From the NCBI RefSeq assembly GCF_003790525.1, contig NZ_CP033635.1: a stretch of DNA of 64,000 bases. One strand, written 5' to 3'. This document shows, in pieces, positions 3,020 to 31,477 of the stretch. Below the pieces are notes generated by a model, which worked only from the letters and a program-made list of their open reading frames with translations, did not search any database and was not told the DNA's origin. A program made the translations under genes and the position numbers. The stretch is from Escherichia coli. GTDB taxonomy: Bacteria > Pseudomonadota > Gammaproteobacteria > Enterobacterales > Enterobacteriaceae. How positions within the stretch are numbered: position 1 is the first letter of the stretch; each line of letters starts with the position of its first letter.

Positions 3020-3055
3020 TAAAAACAAAAACACCATTGCGCAGGCAATGGTGTT
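3020..3055 (-). terminator. Intrinsic terminator downstream of sra
   Basis: Perfect 11-bp stem aacaccattgc / gcaatggtgtt with 4-nt loop (3030..3055); on the minus strand it is followed by a T-rich run (complement of aaaaacaaaa at 3020..3029); lies about 30 bp past the sra stop. Confidence 0.7.
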
Positions 3056-3085
3056 TAATCGTCATTGAGGACTGATGGTTATGAA

Positions 3086-3819: not shown

Positions 3820-3860
3820 GCTTATCCTCGTGCGGTTTCTCACGTAGTCTATAATTTCCT
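3820..3860 (+). promoter_or_regulatory. osmC promoter (-10 element CTATAAT with C at -13, sigma-S-like)
   Basis: tCTATAATt at 3849..3856, about 30 bp upstream of the osmC ATG, in an AT-rich divergent bdm/osmC intergenic region; the osmC promoter is known to be osmotically and RpoS-regulated. The exact transcription start is not determined here. Confidence 0.5.
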
Positions 3861-3884
3861 TTTTAAGCCCACAGGAGAGCAACA

Positions 3885-4316
3885 ATGACAATCCATAAGA
3901 AAGGTCAGGCACACTGGGAAGGCGATATCAAACGCGGGAAGGGAACTGTATCCACCGAGAGCGGCGTGCTGAACCAACAGCCGTATGGATTTAACACGCG
4001 TTTTGAAGGCGAAAAAGGAACCAACCCTGAAGAACTGATTGGCGCAGCGCATGCCGCATGTTTCTCAATGGCGCTTTCATTAATGCTGGGGGAAGCGGGA
4101 TTCACGCCAACATCGATTGATACCACCGCCGATGTGTCGCTGGATAAAGTGGATGCCGGTTTTGCGATTACTAAAATCGCACTGAAAAGCGAAGTTGCGG
4201 TGCCGGGTATTGATGCCTCTACTTTTGACGGCATTATCCAGAAAGCAAAAGCAGGATGCCCGGTTTCTCAGGTACTGAAAGCTGAAATTACGCTTGATTA
4301 CCAGTTGAAATCATAA
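3885..4316 (+). CDS. osmC: Osmotically inducible peroxiredoxin OsmC
   Basis: 143-aa ORF MTIHKKGQAHWEGDIKRGKG...; OsmC/Ohr family with conserved Cys pair (AACFSM ... AGCPVSQ); SD-like GGAGAG before the ATG. Confidence 0.95.
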   Translation: MTIHKKGQAHWEGDIKRGKGTVSTESGVLNQQPYGFNTRFEGEKGTNPEELIGAAHAACFSMALSLMLGEAGFTPTSIDTTADVSLDKVDAGFAITKIALKSEVAVPGIDASTFDGIIQKAKAGCPVSQVLKAEITLDYQLKS

Positions 4317-10593: not shown

Positions 10594-12993
10594 TCAGATT
10601 TTCAGCGGTAACACGCTGCTCATCCAGCCTGGAATTTCTTCGGCGGGTAGGGGGCGGGAAAAGAAATATCCCTGAATAACGCGACAGTGGATCTTGCGTA
10701 GCATCTCAAATTGCTCTTTGGTTTCGACGCCTTCCGCCACGACGGTTAAATTAAGGCTTTGCCCAATGCTGGTAATGGCTTCAAGTAAGGCAAGGATGCG
10801 TTTTTCGGTCAGACAACGATCGACAAAACTTTTGTCAATTTTGATTTCCGTTACTGGAAGACTGACTAAGCGGGATAATCCGGAAAAGCCCGTGCCAAAA
10901 TCATCTACCGATAAACCCACGCCCATATCGCGCAGGATCTGAATGCGCTTAAAGATTTCGGTATCGTGTTCCATCATCATGCTTTCCGTGATTTCTACCG
11001 TCAGCTGGTGGCCGTCAATACCCCAGGCTTGCATTGCATCAGACACCTGATTAGGCAGCTGATTACTGCGAAAGTGCAGCGCCGACAAGTTCACGGATAA
11101 CGCCGGGATATGAATATTCTGGCTACGCCATTCTGCTAACTGACGGCAAGCTTCCGCGATGACCCAGCGTCCAATATTTTCGATTTCACCGATCTCTTCT
11201 GCGAGAGGAATAAACCGTGAAGGGGGCACATGACCATGCAGGGGATCGTGCCAGCGAGCAAGGGCTTCGATGCCGTACAGTTCACCCGTTTCTGCGAAGA
11301 TTTGTGGCTGGTAAACCAGTTTCAGTTGGTTATTGCTAATTGCTTCTTTCAGCGCCGCGCCTAAAACCAAACGCTCTTTTACCATTTCGTTCATCGCCGG
11401 GCTGAAGAACTGCCAGCCGTTACCGCCATTTTTGCGAATAAAATCCATTGCATTGTGAGCAGTGGAGAGCAGGTAATCGCGGTTTTTACCCACGTCGTAG
11501 CTGATGCCAATGCTCAAGGTGAGCGGGAATGGTTTATCGTCAATCATTATCGGCTTGCTGACCACATTCCGTAGCTCATCGGCGATCTGCGTAATGTTAC
11601 TGACGTCGTTTTCGAGGCTCACGAGGACAAACTGCGTACCTTCGATACGACAGAGATATTGATCCGGTTTGAGTTTTTCACGAAAGCGATTGACCACTTC
11701 CAGCAATGCCTGATCGGCCCACGCATAGCCAAGGCTATCAATCACATCCTGAATATGGTCAACACCGATGAGATACACCACTGGAGAGACGGCTTTGTCG
11801 ACCAGGTCATCGAGGTAATTGTGCAGGTTATTGCGATTTGGCAGACCGGTCATCGGATCAAATTGGATGAGTTGTTCAATATGCTGACGGCTTTTTTCCT
11901 GTTCCAGCGCCAGCGCGGCCATATGCTGGCTGATATCTGCCACGCGTTCGATAAAGGCGCTGGTTTCTGCTCCTGACGAGGTTTTAATTTGCAGGATCCC
12001 CGCCGGCGCGCCATCACGCTGACGAATGGTCGCTGACCAGCTTTGCGCATTTTGAACTTCTGTACCGTGCGAAGATGACGCCCAGTGTATCGGCATCCCG
12101 TTGCGCAGCGCGTACAGCGAAACATGCGATTCGTTGAGTACAGATTCGATGTTACGACAAATGATTTCCCCCATTTCATGAAATGGCGGGCTGCTGCACA
12201 TGGCGGCGAGAATATTGCCTTCAAGCTGGCGGATTTGCCGTTCTTCGGTGATATCCGAGAAGGTCATTACCAGGTTCTGCAGATGCGCGAGCACGTCATA
12301 AACCGGGCTGATAGAGGCTTTAATCCAGATTTTTTCACCGGTGCGCGTCAACAGCAGAAATTCATCCTGATCGCGGGCGGTTTTCCATAGCAACTGTTGT
12401 AAACGAATGCGGTTATCGGCAGGGAATTCAGGAATGTTAAGGAGTGAATCGGGCTGCATACCGCTGGCTTCGCTAATGCAGTAACCAAACATTTCGGTAA
12501 ATGCGCGATTGCACTGCACAATATGGCGTTCCGGATCGAGGACAATCACCGGTCGGTCGAGATGGTCAACGGCAATAATCAATTGTCGGGTCTGTTCTTT
12601 TTGCGCCATTTCTACGCTGGCATCCCGTACCAGCGCCAGGTAATAAACTTTCCCCTCGGCGCTCACTTTCGATAGCGCAAAACGGGTCCAGATTTTACTG
12701 CCGTCTTTTTTCTCCAGCTGCAGCTCCCGACTCATCCCCTCGACGCGCGCTTTACCGCCTTCACGGTTATGACGAATGTATTCAGGATGCGCAGGACGCA
12801 AATCCCGCGGAATCAGCATATCAATGTTATTGCCAATGACTTCTTCACGTTTGTACCCCCAGAGCTTCTCTGCGGCGGGGTTGAAAAACATCACTTCATC
12901 ATTTTCGTTAATTAACACCGCACCCATCATATTTTGCTCAAGGGCGGGGAAAAAAATGCCATCGGCGGCATTATCCGCATCGGTTAGCTTCAT
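10594..12993 (-). CDS. dosP: Heme-PAS oxygen-sensing c-di-GMP phosphodiesterase DosP
   Basis: ORF 10594..13017 trimmed to ATG at 12991-12993 giving MKLTDADNAADGIFFPALE (799 aa); PAS, degenerate GGDEF and EAL domains (YGIEALARW). Confidence 0.93.
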   Translation of the reverse strand: MKLTDADNAADGIFFPALEQNMMGAVLINENDEVMFFNPAAEKLWGYKREEVIGNNIDMLIPRDLRPAHPEYIRHNREGGKARVEGMSRELQLEKKDGSKIWTRFALSKVSAEGKVYYLALVRDASVEMAQKEQTRQLIIAVDHLDRPVIVLDPERHIVQCNRAFTEMFGYCISEASGMQPDSLLNIPEFPADNRIRLQQLLWKTARDQDEFLLLTRTGEKIWIKASISPVYDVLAHLQNLVMTFSDITEERQIRQLEGNILAAMCSSPPFHEMGEIICRNIESVLNESHVSLYALRNGMPIHWASSSHGTEVQNAQSWSATIRQRDGAPAGILQIKTSSGAETSAFIERVADISQHMAALALEQEKSRQHIEQLIQFDPMTGLPNRNNLHNYLDDLVDKAVSPVVYLIGVDHIQDVIDSLGYAWADQALLEVVNRFREKLKPDQYLCRIEGTQFVLVSLENDVSNITQIADELRNVVSKPIMIDDKPFPLTLSIGISYDVGKNRDYLLSTAHNAMDFIRKNGGNGWQFFSPAMNEMVKERLVLGAALKEAISNNQLKLVYQPQIFAETGELYGIEALARWHDPLHGHVPPSRFIPLAEEIGEIENIGRWVIAEACRQLAEWRSQNIHIPALSVNLSALHFRSNQLPNQVSDAMQAWGIDGHQLTVEITESMMMEHDTEIFKRIQILRDMGVGLSVDDFGTGFSGLSRLVSLPVTEIKIDKSFVDRCLTEKRILALLEAITSIGQSLNLTVVAEGVETKEQFEMLRKIHCRVIQGYFFSRPLPAEEIPGWMSSVLPLKI

Positions 12994-13017
12994 AATTACC
13001 TCTGCATCCTGACGCAT

Positions 13018-14400
13018 CTAAAGACTGGCTTTCCAGAGTTCAACACGGTTTCTACCTCGTCTTTTGGCGATATACAGAGCTTCATCGGCTATTTGAATGA
13101 GGCGCTCATAGTCAGGATGACCATTAAACATGGCGGCACCGATGGAAAGTGAGAGGGCAATATCCTCGCCGTTTGCGGCTTTCAGTTTGGTTTTCTCCAC
13201 CCGACTGCGAATACGTTCTGCGGTACGTAACGTTTCGTTTTCCGAAGCTTCAGTCAAAACAATGATAAATTCATCGCCCCCGTAGCGGAAAACATAATCA
13301 CTACTGCGGACGTTGTCATAAAAGGCCTGAGAGACTTTACGCAGAATTTCATCGCCAGTGTTATGGCCCCACGTATCGTTAATCTCTTTGAATTTATCAA
13401 CGTCAATAATCAGCACTGACAGCGGTGTACCGGTCCGGTTGGCATGGGCAATTTCGCGTTTGAAGATCGTCGGCAGGAAACGGCGGTTAAGTAATTTCGT
13501 CAGTACATCCATACCGACTTCGTGGCGCGATACTTCTTCAAACAATTCACGCAACAAGGTAATAATTTGCGATACGGTATTTCTTATCTGTAATAAAAAT
13601 TTCACCCGTAAACTTCTGTTATTCAAATTCCTGGTGTTACGCATGGTTTGATTGAAAATACCGTCGAAATCCTGAATCAGACGGGAGATATGGCCCACTT
13701 CGGCTATGCCGCTAAAATAATGTCGACCTTTATGGTTAAACCACAGGCCAAAATCAGCCTGGCTTAAAGGCAAACTACTGCCTAAATCAGAATCCAGCAG
13801 GACTTTATAGATAATATCTATTTCCCATGAAAGTATTGAGGCTATTTGCCGTTCTTTTTCTTCTTCGGCATTTTCCAGTAACGAGAAGATACGATAGTTT
13901 TCATCTTCCTTTGAGGCACTACTGTCACTAAAGGTAAACGCGCGGGTCATCACTTCCATAGCGATATCAATACTGTTAATCGAGAAATGGTAGACCTGAA
14001 GTTTTTCCGCGGCGGAATAATCCGAAGAGAAGATGACCGGATAGAGGATTTTTTTCAGCACCCGAAACCCCATCTCGACAATTTCTACCGGAATTCCTAT
14101 GCGGGCATGCACTTCCGCGACGGTATGCTGGATTTGTATTAGCCTTTCGACATCGTCAACCTGGGCAGAAAGCACGTTAATAATCCAGCGTTCCATCGCA
14201 CTTTTCAACTGCCGCTCAACTTGTTCATTACTCAAGAATTCTTCGGCATGCGGGTCGATACGGACAATTCGGTAAAACTCAATACTCAGATAATGGGCAT
14301 GCGCAACGGCAATTTCCGCGGCTTTAGCACGAATGAGCGGATCTGCTTGTTCGACAAGCCCGGTCCACTCATCTTTCATTCTTTTAAAATACATCTCCAT
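13018..14400 (-). CDS. dosC: Globin-coupled diguanylate cyclase DosC
   Basis: 460-aa ORF MEMYFKRMKDEWTG...; C-terminal GGDEF domain with RYGGDEF active-site motif; immediately upstream of dosP in an operon arrangement. Confidence 0.95.
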   Translation of the reverse strand: MEMYFKRMKDEWTGLVEQADPLIRAKAAEIAVAHAHYLSIEFYRIVRIDPHAEEFLSNEQVERQLKSAMERWIINVLSAQVDDVERLIQIQHTVAEVHARIGIPVEIVEMGFRVLKKILYPVIFSSDYSAAEKLQVYHFSINSIDIAMEVMTRAFTFSDSSASKEDENYRIFSLLENAEEEKERQIASILSWEIDIIYKVLLDSDLGSSLPLSQADFGLWFNHKGRHYFSGIAEVGHISRLIQDFDGIFNQTMRNTRNLNNRSLRVKFLLQIRNTVSQIITLLRELFEEVSRHEVGMDVLTKLLNRRFLPTIFKREIAHANRTGTPLSVLIIDVDKFKEINDTWGHNTGDEILRKVSQAFYDNVRSSDYVFRYGGDEFIIVLTEASENETLRTAERIRSRVEKTKLKAANGEDIALSLSIGAAMFNGHPDYERLIQIADEALYIAKRRGRNRVELWKASL

Positions 14401-14724
14401 AATTCACACCCTTATAAGGCTGGGAAAGCAGACGGAATCAAAACGAAACGCAACGTGCGAGATCGACTAACTGCACCATACTCTCCTGAAATATGAAGAT
14501 ATACTGAAAACAAATAAGCGACTTAGGACAGTTTCAATCTACGCTACTGTTCTTCAGAAGAGTATAGCCCATCGTAATTATTTTTCGGTGACAGCGAATA
14601 TCGTATGTTTTTTCATGTTCATACATTTTTATTAGGGGATTTATGACTGTTTAACTAAGTGTGGTTAATTGCGTAGTTAATTTGACTTAAGTAAGCATGA
14701 TTACTAGTGGGATATTTCAAGAGG

Positions 14725-14758
14725 GTAACAAGCCGGGGGGAAAGCACCGGCTTGTTAC
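14725..14758. repeat. Perfect 12-bp stem-loop downstream of yddW
   Basis: gtaacaagccgg (14725..14736) / ccggcttgttac (14747..14758) around a 10-nt loop; no clear U-tract on either side; 18 nt past the yddW stop. Confidence 0.5.
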
Positions 14759-14775
14759 AAAGTAAGAATGGGAGT

Positions 14776-16095
14776 TTAACTGCCCCAACGACTTTGCAGA
14801 TAGCTGACCGCTTGTTGAGTCTGTGGCTTATTCAGATAGTCCTCACGGAACAAGATTGTGCCGCTAATTTCTGGCACGGCATCGTTAAGATCGAGCTGCT
14901 TTTTCAGTTCCGGTACGCCGCCGTTAATTATCCAGTCTGGCTCTATCTTTGAAGGTTCACCCACTTTATAGAAGGCGATACCGATATACAGGCGGGTCCT
15001 GGTCGGTTTAACGACATCCGCCCACCATTTTGCCAACACGTCATAACGCGCGGCACTCCGTGAGAATGGCCAGTAAATTTGGGGAGCAATGTAATCCAGC
15101 AACCCTTGTTCCACCCATCGACGGGTATCAGCGTAGGATTCGTCATAGGCTGCCGCGCCTCGGGTATCGGAACCGAGCGGATCGTGTGATCGGTTACGCC
15201 ACACGCCTGCCGGGCTAACGCCAAATTCGACTTCCGGCTTAATGCTTTTAATGGTGTGCGATACCTTCGCAATTAACTGCTGAGTATTGTTGCGCCGCCA
15301 GTCTGCTTTTGACGCAAATGCGCCGCCGTATTTGCGGTACGTTTCATTATCATTTAGCCGTGAACCTGGCGACTCAGTATAGAAATAGTCGTCAAACTGC
15401 ACGCCATCTACCGGATAGCGGGAAACCACTTCTGCAACTATTGATGTGATCCAGTCCTGAACCTCAGGTATGCCCGGGTCGAGGACAAAGCGATCGCCGG
15501 ACGTTCTGATCCAGTCGCGGTGTTGCACATAGACGCTCGCCGGTTGTTGAGACAGGGTGCTATTCAGTTCCCTGATAGTACCGGGCTTCGTATTAACCGA
15601 TACGCGATAGGGGTTAAACCAGACGTGTACTTTCATCCCACGCTTGTGGGCTTCGTCGAGCATGAATTGCAGCGGATCGTAACCCGGATTTTCACCAATC
15701 TTACCGGTCATAAGATCGGACCACGGCAAAATTTTCGATGGCCACAGGGCGGTACCGTCTGGCTTGACCTGGAAAAAGACCGTGTTTATGCCGAGACGTT
15801 GCAGATGATCCAGTTTGTCGATCATCGCCTGTTGTTGTACACGGGCCCGGCTGGTGGGGTTACTAATGTTAACCGAGGAAACCGGTGGCCAGTCGAGGCG
15901 AGACACCGTGGCCAGCCAGATGCCACGCATCGGTTGTGACGATTGTTGCGTCGTGGCTGGTGGCTTTGAACCCGCTGGTGGTGTCACCATGGACTCTGGA
16001 GGCGTGCTTTTACAACTACACAGTAAAAGTGCCAGTGCAACCAGTATCGCTGGTCTTCTAATCGCTAATTTCTCGTTTCGGGAGCAGATATCCAT
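14776..16095 (-). CDS. yddW: Outer-membrane lipoprotein, family 10 glycosyl-hydrolase-like (YddW)
   Basis: 439-aa ORF; lipoprotein signal with lipobox LLLCSC; length and sequence match recalled YddW. Confidence 0.9.
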   Translation of the reverse strand: MDICSRNEKLAIRRPAILVALALLLCSCKSTPPESMVTPPAGSKPPATTQQSSQPMRGIWLATVSRLDWPPVSSVNISNPTSRARVQQQAMIDKLDHLQRLGINTVFFQVKPDGTALWPSKILPWSDLMTGKIGENPGYDPLQFMLDEAHKRGMKVHVWFNPYRVSVNTKPGTIRELNSTLSQQPASVYVQHRDWIRTSGDRFVLDPGIPEVQDWITSIVAEVVSRYPVDGVQFDDYFYTESPGSRLNDNETYRKYGGAFASKADWRRNNTQQLIAKVSHTIKSIKPEVEFGVSPAGVWRNRSHDPLGSDTRGAAAYDESYADTRRWVEQGLLDYIAPQIYWPFSRSAARYDVLAKWWADVVKPTRTRLYIGIAFYKVGEPSKIEPDWIINGGVPELKKQLDLNDAVPEISGTILFREDYLNKPQTQQAVSYLQSRWGS

Positions 16096-16170: not shown

Positions 16171-16200
16171 CGAAAAAGGGAGCGATGAATTATCGCTCCC
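16171..16200 (-). terminator. Intrinsic terminator downstream of gadC
   Basis: Stem gggagcgat / atcgctccc (16178..16200) with 5-nt loop; on the minus strand followed by a U-tract (complement of aaaaa at 16173..16177); about 25 bp past the gadC stop. Confidence 0.7.
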
Positions 16201-16225
16201 TTGTCTTATAACCATTCAGACATGG

Positions 16226-17761
16226 TTAGTGTTTCTTGTCATTCATCACAATATAGTGTGGTGAACGTGCACGCGGGTGCAGGAAGAAGTGACCTTTTGG
16301 TGCGTTCTGACTGTTGATTGGCTCCAGAGTAACGCCGGTATTCCCTTTGCCTTTACGATCATGAACAGCATAGAGAATAAAGGGCAGGGCAAGTACCACC
16401 AGGAAACTCACGACCAGTAATTCAACATACATATCGGTAGAGTCACCCTGGATGTTATCCGGCGGCAGGAAGGAAACAATAAACGCCATAATTGAAGTCA
16501 GCAGACCGACAATAGCCACGACCAGTTTCACCCCTTTACCACCAGGGATATTAAATGTGCGTTTTAAGTCAGGATGTTTAAGAACCAACACAATGTAGCC
16601 AATAAACAGCATGAAATAAGCACACAGATAAATCACCACCGTCAGTGCCAGTGCGATCAGGAAGGACATGTTGTTACCGCCACCGGTATTGGTGAGGATG
16701 ATCAACGCGATAGAAGTAATCACCAGCTGCGAAATGACCAGCGTTACCGGTACGCCATTTTTGTTCATTTTAGCGAATGCTGCTGGCAGCAGGTTTTTCT
16801 GCGCTGTGACATACATCCCGCGAGAAGGACCAACAATCCAGGAAGCGATTTCCGCCAGAACACCCAGCAACAGCAGTGCGGAGATCACGCGAACCGTCCA
16901 CTCAATTTCCGGTGCCACATGTGACATCAGAACGGTAAAGGTTTGCATTACCCCTGCGGAGAGGTTGATTTCATTACCCGGAATGACCATCGCAATAGAC
17001 AAACCGCCAACAGAGCTTAAGCAGATTGCCGCTACCATCAGCAGTAACATAGCCAGTGGATAGTCGCGCCCGGGGTTGCTCATTTCATTGACGTGGGTTG
17101 CGGAAGCTTCAACGCCCATATAACTCAAAATGAAGGCAACAAATACAACCAGGGTGCCCACTTTAGAGAAGTCAGGGAAGAAGGTCTTCGCATCCATTTC
17201 GATAGCAACGGGGGCACCGGAGTGCAGATAAATAGCCGCTAATGCGATCAAAATAAATGCAGGTAACAGGATACCGGCGAAGAAGCCAACTTTAGCAATG
17301 CGCGCCGTGTATTTCGTGCCACCAAACTGCGTTAATGCCAGCGCCCAAAGAATGATGAGTGCTGCAATAGTTTTGGTAATGGGGTCTTCATTCAGCGCTG
17401 GCCATTTCAGGATGTAGGAGAGTGCCCCTAACACGAAATAGAGCATCGGAATAAAACCAATGGCGATTTGCAGATAACCAAATGAGATCGCTGCAAATCC
17501 CCATCTCGGCCCCAAAGTATTTGATACCCAGGCGAAGACGCCACCTTCTTCCCAGCCGTCGACGGTAGCCATTTCCGCAGCACAAAGTCCCACGGGAATA
17601 AACCATAAAATCCCGCCTAATAGCAGGAAGAAGACTAATGAAAAGCCCGATGTTGCGAAGGTAGGGTATTCATAAACAGCCATTACCATCGATGCCGTTA
17701 TGGCAAAGAATCCGAGTAATGTGAGCTGCTTAGCTTTACCTGTCTGTACTGATGTAGCCAT
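16226..17761 (-). CDS. gadC: Glutamate:GABA antiporter GadC
   Basis: 511-aa [32 protein letters not shown]...; APC-family transporter; start at ATG 17759-17761. Confidence 0.95.
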
Positions 17762-17870
17762 ATTATCCCCCTAAAACGGTATTCCTGTCGGAACCGCACC
17801 TGTTTTGTTCTGAAGCGTATTCAGAACAATATTTTCCGTTGCTAATGCCAGTGAACAGACTTTGGAAATT

Positions 17871-17896
17871 GTCCCGAAACGGGTGTGTTTCGGGAC
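17871..17896 (-). terminator. Stem-loop in the gadB-gadC intergenic region (possible attenuator or 3' stabiliser)
   Basis: Perfect 10-bp stem gtcccgaaac / gtttcgggac with 6-nt loop; weak U-tract, so more likely partial termination or a processing/stability element than a strong terminator. Confidence 0.4.
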
Positions 17897-17916
17897 ACCG
17901 TTACCGTTAAACGTTA

Positions 17917-31359: not shown

Positions 31360-31477
31360 GAGGTTTATATCTTATAGTGTGTAGTTTAATTTAATCCATG
31401 TGAGCAAATTGCGCGATAATAGTCAATGAGGAATTCTTCTGCTGTGCGGATGACAGCAGAAGAAATGAGGAGGCGAA

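Follow-up and report, generated by a model that had tools for sequence, protein, structure and literature searches.

A conserved stem-loop without a U-tract downstream of digH in Escherichia: a candidate protective 3' end of the digH mRNA

The region between digH and dosC of Escherichia coli raises the question of what a strong, perfectly paired hairpin does directly behind a stop codon when no U-tract follows it. The window, that is, the whole 64-kb stretch of DNA analysed here, carries digH (formerly yddW) at positions 14776-16095 of the minus strand, where both the list of open reading frames and the RefSeq annotation (FDAARGOS_497, K-12) place a protein of 439 aa. In the RefSeq annotation this product is a family 10 glycosyl hydrolase localised to the divisome. 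The neighbouring genes are gadC (16226-17761) on one side and dosC (13018-14400) and dosP (10594-13017) on the other, and all of them lie on the minus strand. The spacer between digH and dosC spans positions 14401-14775 (375 bp) and is 100% identical to that of E. coli strain FDAARGOS_497.

The hairpin is found at 14725-14758 and is assigned to the minus strand as a stem-loop of the digH 3' UTR on the basis of its sequence, folding, excess over shuffled DNA, conservation in Escherichia and G·U bias. Its arms, 14725-14736 (GTAACAAGCCGG) and 14747-14758 (CCGGCTTGTTAC), form 12 bp of perfect complementarity around a loop that is 10 nt long in the window strain (GGGGAAAGCA). The counterpart in MG1655 lies at 1,567,452-1,567,486 (minus strand). 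The sequence-only reading had described a perfect 12-bp hairpin located 18 nt past the yddW stop and within the 375-bp spacer, and the sequence bears this out, as the first stem nucleotide is the 18th after the digH TAA. The 17 nt that intervene (14759-14775, minus strand, AACTCCCATTCTTACTT-T) keep their length and most of their sequence in Escherichia and, together with the 5' arm, are almost invariant within E. coli. This spacer is pyrimidine-rich and poor in A, so an upstream A-tract is absent; the 10 nt before the stem (TTCTTACTTT) contain a single A. Neither FDAARGOS_497 nor MG1655 carries a RefSeq annotation at the position of the hairpin. A mechanically called GTG open reading frame of 81 aa (14707-14952, plus strand), antisense to the 3' end of digH, begins just upstream of the hairpin and spans it, and no evidence was seen for its being a gene.

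Folded in isolation, the hairpin has an energy of -18.8 kcal/mol as digH-sense RNA and -20.4 kcal/mol as plus-strand RNA. When placed in a 91-nt context, it yields z-scores of -3.1 (digH-sense) and -2.8 (plus strand) relative to shuffled sequences. The window contains three perfect stems that reach 12 bp or more around loops of 3-12 nt, compared with a mean of 0.08 in dinucleotide shuffles of the 64-kb window, which served as the chance model; thus, the hairpin is not explained by chance. Nor does it stand out in its surroundings: the same 64 kb contain six further perfect stems of 10 bp or more, and it is one of several strong extragenic hairpins there. With these, the window holds seven distinct hairpins of this kind, or 15 nested counts compared with 0.89 in the shuffles. 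The earlier description of the hairpin as unusually stable therefore applies in a relative sense only. Two of the other hairpins resemble terminators in their tails, one after gadC (16176-16202, tail score 3.86) and one with a T-rich tail on the minus strand (3029-3056, tail score 4.60). Two more are located in the gadB-gadC spacer (17805-17829 and 17870-17897, the latter with no T-run), and the remaining pair lies at 31434-31464 and at 41565-41595, the last again with no T-run.

The tail of the digH hairpin differs from that of a terminator. No T-run follows the stem on either strand, and a terminator consensus scan of positions 13900-15300 found no terminator-like site. The d'Aubenton-Carafa-type tail score, which has a ceiling of 7.15 for a pure run of 15 T, reaches 2.07 on the minus strand and 1.60 on the plus strand. 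The sense tail is CCTCTTGAAATATCC, with CCUCUUGA directly after the stem. Specifically, its first two residues are C, and there are three U among its first 7-8 nt. These values agree with the initial impression that a T-run is lacking on both strands.

The hairpin is also not a member of a repeat family. Within the window, the stem 12-mer matches only its own two arms. With a 53-nt query, 5,412 of 5,426 complete E. coli genomes each gave a single place (5,413 places in 5,413 records, median 1), so that other genomic copies of the stem, a prospect that had been raised for this sequence, were searched for and none was found. The single copy rules out a REP element, a BIME or another dispersed repeat, and no REP consensus is present. 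A search of Rfam 15 at a permissive E-value returned matches at chance level only, the best one over the hairpin being rli61 (18.4 bits compared with a gathering threshold of 50, E = 2.2). Likewise, full-text literature searches on yddW, alone or with 'terminator', returned nothing about the end of the yddW transcript, and one on the transcription starts of dosC yielded mainly papers on other subjects. Several sites of known RNA-binding factors were set aside on anatomy alone. A stem of 12-14 bp is short for RNase III, a CsrA site is disfavoured because the sense-strand loop has no GGA, and an Hfq or ProQ site because there is no 3' U-tail. The proposals that the hairpin might be an RNase processing site or a protein-binding element received no specific support.

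Within E. coli, the spacer between digH and dosC is polymorphic, with 93% identity to K-12 as well as indels. K-12 and most of the sampled E. coli strains possess a 14-bp stem (GTAACAAGCCGGTG/CACCGGCTTGTTAC) with a 7-nt loop, which folds at -23.9 kcal/mol in a 75-nt context and at -23.1 kcal/mol alone. In the window strain, a deletion in the loop and an A>C change have removed the top two pairs, and its hairpin with 12 bp and a 10-nt loop is a strain-specific derivative of the commoner form with 14 bp and 7 nt. Exact 55-nt matches to the K-12 type were found in 1,095 genomes, while the window-type allele is represented in 365 genomes at an identity of at least 99%. A third and common type, with 336 genomes at exact 55-nt matches, has an A·G mismatch at stem pair 7 and includes the alleles of s4314, 2015C-3163 and GF3-3. 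Other alleles alter the pairing in different ways. In Ecol745 and GF4-3, a C>U change produces a G·U pair, which is possible on the digH-sense RNA only. The allele of F5505-C1 has an additional U-A pair at the base of the stem (-26.9 kcal/mol in a 75-nt context), and that of strain 1190 gains one pair through a change in the loop.

A few strains have undergone larger rearrangements in this region. In MS20673 (L003, 2242-3039), an IS1 is inserted within the 3' arm of the hairpin, the dosC-dosP region is gone, and the IS1 adjoins sra, maeA and adhP instead. The first 41 bp of the spacer and the N-terminal part of dosC are both missing from Ecol_745 (L007) and the hits H25-H29; dosC is annotated as a pseudogene in this group, and the hairpin is retained with the C>T change that gives the G·U pair. 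P276M (L094, about 1480-1533) carries a divergent allele (GTAACAAGCCGGTGCTACCGGCATTTTTAC) in which a shorter, imperfect hairpin is followed by five T. This arrangement is nearer to a canonical terminator, and dosC is annotated as frameshifted in this genome, whose assembly quality is uncertain. The spacer further contains a 12-bp tandem duplication polymorphism at 14671-14682 (within 14660-14684), where AATTAACTACGC adjoins AATTAACCACAC on the minus strand. Two copies are present in the window strain, AR_0369, 19SZHZ803Rt, Ecol_745 and 2015C-3163, and one copy is present in K-12 and strain 4314.

Conservation beyond E. coli was examined in a species scan that took one DigH-bearing genome per species and returned 80 loci. 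Among these, the DNA downstream of digH is common to Escherichia only. Four other Escherichia lineages (L011-L014) keep the gene order gadC-digH-dosC and possess a hairpin 15-17 nt past the digH stop, with energies of -18 to -22 kcal/mol. The structure is thus conserved in related genomes, as conservation had been named in the sequence-only reading as a test of it. None of the Escherichia lineages examined has a U-tract after the hairpin, and the tails include, for example, CAACGAAAC and CCTGCAAAA. The view that the hairpin is not a simple intrinsic terminator is strengthened by this result.

Maintenance of the structure itself is most strongly supported by the whittamii clade and strain E69. 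Their hairpins contain 7-9 changes per 35 nt and yet fold at -18.2 to -21.7 kcal/mol. When the observed numbers of transitions, transversions and indels were placed at random in the K-12 hairpin, the mean energy was only -7 to -8 kcal/mol, and the fraction of simulated sequences that were as stable was 0.001-0.013. By the same simulation, the hairpin of Escherichia sp. MOD1-EC7003 (L010) has decayed to -12.8 kcal/mol (p = 0.24), which is compatible with neutrality. This genome is without dosC, and a REP-like palindrome (GCTGACGCATCAGGCC...GCCTGACGCGTCATCCGGCA) follows its digH (3820-3940).

A structure alignment of 11 sequences (A3) provides further evidence of maintained pairing. Standard pairs make up 94.2% of the pair cells in this alignment, compared with 33-50% in slid registers in which the 3' partners were shifted. 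Alignment pair 15-46 is A-U in five sequences, G-C in four and G-U in one. The covariation score was matched by 38 of 500 shuffles, and this support is modest because the lineages are few, with perhaps three independent ones outside E. coli. The alignment also distinguishes between the two strands. Pairing amounts to 94.2% on the digH-sense strand and 87.7% on the opposite strand, and G·U outnumbers A·C by 12 cells to 2, which favours the digH-sense transcript as the functional RNA. Overall, selection on the RNA has preserved the hairpin structure in Escherichia.

Outside Escherichia, the DNA 3' of digH is non-homologous, so those loci cannot test the conservation of this particular hairpin. 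A textbook hairpin with a T-run follows the digH orthologue in Enterobacter (L030, L069, L075), Lelliottia, Buttiauxella (L056), Pectobacterium (L054) and Rahnella, and U-less hairpins lie downstream of other orthologues. These observations come from an automatic survey of the best hairpin at the 80 DigH loci, a crude one that was used qualitatively only, because some of the hairpins chosen lie inside convergent genes and U-tracts are counted as part of stems extended by A:U pairs (L037, L084).

The RNA that follows the hairpin also has an uncommon composition. A candidate Rho loading (rut-like) stretch was delimited at 14619-14724 on the minus strand from its composition, in 60- and 78-nt windows, and from its folding. 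In the sense RNA from 14724 to 14619, there are 6-7 G per 78 nt and the C/G ratio is 2.7-3.2, a ratio reached by only 0.1-0.3% of the 78-nt windows when both strands of the 64 kb are taken together. The 120 nt past the hairpin fold at only -5.1 kcal/mol (z +0.86) and are essentially unstructured. The poverty in G past the hairpin is also seen in Escherichia L011-L014. The stretch is A/T-rich, with C at only about 24% and an average number of YC dimers, and is a plausible rather than a compelling Rho site.

Further downstream, the motif CTATACT (14562-14568, minus strand) resembles an extended -10 element of the sigma-S type. It is located about 155-160 nt past the hairpin, with the dosC ATG about 155 nt further downstream, and the seven aligned E. 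coli strains that retain the stretch show no variation in it. Judged by its sequence, CTATACT is probably a promoter element of dosC or dosCP. No good -35 element is visible with it, and a promoter scan of 13900-15300 made no call there, returning a single weak promoter-like site inside dosC. Binding of the RpoS holoenzyme in SELEX has been reported in this neighbourhood (PMC5493296). After CTATACT, the dosC leader of the window strain contains an intact yddY, a small open reading frame of 13 aa (14438-14479, minus strand) that is annotated as b4746 and has been detected experimentally in K-12 (PMC6001520).

A setting of this kind has been described for E. coli 3' ends that depend on Rho. Such ends carry a stable stem-loop whose energy is comparable to that of a terminator, but U is reduced after the stem and the A-tract before it is missing; C is enriched over G downstream, and the transcript, which is terminated at a more distal point, is shortened to the stem by PNPase and RNase II (Dar and Sorek, 2018; PMC6061677). 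On balance, and with some reserve, the digH hairpin is likely to be a structure of the same type, that is, a cap that protects the 3' end of the digH mRNA and precedes a zone of Rho termination, which may also shield the dosC promoter. The ribosome would be released at the digH TAA, 17 nt before the stem, and RNA polymerase would then pass the hairpin without an efficient stop because CCUCUUGA takes the place of a U-tract after the stem. Rho could load on the approximately 100 nt of G-poor, unstructured RNA with C in excess of G, and termination would be diffuse, before or around the dosC promoter. In this way, dosCP would continue to be driven by a sigma-S-type promoter of its own. PNPase and RNase II, which are 3'-5' exonucleases, would shorten the remaining tail to the base of the stem, which would halt them and stabilise the digH message. 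From the sequence and by analogy with the described class, we infer termination by Rho at this locus, a steady-state 3' end at the stem base and a more stable digH mRNA owing to the hairpin. Among the functions that the sequence-only reading had offered, a structure stabilising the 3' end is accordingly the one best supported, owing to the structural conservation on the digH-sense strand, the rut-like stretch downstream and the match to this class.

As the main alternative, the hairpin could act as a weak, non-canonical intrinsic terminator, perhaps aided by NusA or NusG, in which case a fraction of the polymerases would be released at CCUCUU and the 3' end would be made by termination and not by trimming. 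The strong stem, with its GC-rich top and energies of -19 to -24 kcal/mol, is suited to this role, as are the position right past the stop codon, which is the usual site of a terminator, and the three U in the first 7 nt of the tail. Canonical terminators also occupy the same position after the digH orthologues of Enterobacter, Buttiauxella and Pectobacterium. However, the tail score of 2.07 is well under the 3.86 and 4.60 of the terminator-like hairpins in the window, the consensus scan fails, the C-C start of the tail would give a strong rC:dG hybrid, and no A-tract lies upstream. Nor is the hairpin a recently decayed terminator, since all Escherichia lineages lack a U-tract to the same or an even greater degree. 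Intrinsic termination is therefore unlikely, and to whatever extent it takes place it could coexist with Rho-dependent termination. A palindrome that works in the DNA, either as the site of a dimeric DNA-binding protein or as a cruciform-prone sequence upstream of dosC, appears very improbable. The inverted repeat is perfect and lies about 160 nt upstream of the presumed -10 element of dosC, and where both arms change in concert, as from A-T to G-C at pair 3, the symmetry of the DNA would be kept too. In contrast, the asymmetric changes that preserve pairing in the RNA of one strand dominate, as seen from the G·U and A·C counts, and the position of the hairpin is fixed to the digH stop, at a constant 15-17 nt, and not to dosC. 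Arms of 12-14 bp with a GC-rich centre, set 5-10 nt apart, are typical of an RNA hairpin and not of an operator, and their length and spacing vary among lineages as the stem repeatedly grows into the loop or retreats from it, unlike a fixed protein footprint.

The same conservation at the RNA level that underlies the protective cap would also be expected of some other RNA-level regulator, such as the site of an RNA-binding protein or a processing determinant that governs read-through from digH into dosCP or a conditional decay of digH. The near invariance of the 17-nt spacer and the 5' arm in E. coli fits such a role, as does the decay of the hairpin in L010, which has lost dosC downstream. 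The absence of an Rfam match weighs against it. Furthermore, the loop varies (CTTTACC, CTTTCCCC, TTTAA, ATGCAAG) and has repeatedly been turned into stem pairs, and this want of conservation argues against a sequence-specific recognition of the loop. We regard a regulator of this kind as a slim possibility. It is likewise doubtful to a high degree that the hairpin is without function, as a palindrome that arose by chance or hitch-hiked in a variable spacer. Mismatches in common E. coli alleles, the IS1 in the 3' arm in MS20673, which is without obvious harm, and the neutral-looking decay in MOD1-EC7003 are what such a palindrome might display. The excess of stems over shuffles argues against it, as does a stability far past the neutral expectation in two independent divergent lineages.

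If the protective cap is correct, the point at which the mRNA of DigH, a glycosyl hydrolase of cell division, ends would be defined. This arrangement would also account for the insulation of the sigma-S-dependent dosCP operon, which lies 375 bp downstream in the same orientation, from transcription that begins upstream of it. A more elaborate version can be imagined in which the hairpin is a conditional insulator between digH and the oxygen-sensing dosCP operon, with oxygen and c-di-GMP signals acting back on how the digH 3' end is trimmed or on transcription that continues into dosCP. There are reports that DosC and DosP associate with PNPase and modulate its activity through c-di-GMP. The only hint of such an insulator is the decay of the hairpin in L010, the sole Escherichia lineage without dosC downstream, and we consider it a remote prospect. 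The arrangement is otherwise an ordinary one that has already been described, and the hairpin would be a so far unannotated instance of it. While its importance beyond annotation is little, it adds a comparatively well-supported example to the U-less protective stem-loops before Rho zones, given its genus-wide conservation and its compensatory and G·U changes.

In comparison with known systems, the hairpin shares with canonical intrinsic terminators a GC-rich stem soon after the stop codon and a free energy in or above the usual range. It differs from them in having neither a U-tract nor an A-tract. The loop, for which 3-8 nt is the canonical length, is 10 nt in the window strain and 7 nt in K-12-type alleles. 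With REP elements and BIMEs, it has in common that it is an extragenic palindrome in a 3' UTR able to block exonucleases; however, it is single-copy and has no REP consensus. The class of Dar and Sorek was set by experiment, through a precise 3' end, sensitivity to bicyclomycin and extension in pnp and rnb mutants, and the digH hairpin is likened to it by its sequence and predicted folding; its downstream C content is only moderate. The features shared with this class are a stable stem-loop just past the gene, the absence of a U-rich tail and of an upstream A-tract, and a G-poor sequence with C in excess of G directly downstream. Finally, the hairpin is not a REP element, as is also true of 76% of the protective 3' stem-loops in that class (Dar and Sorek, 2018; PMC6061677).
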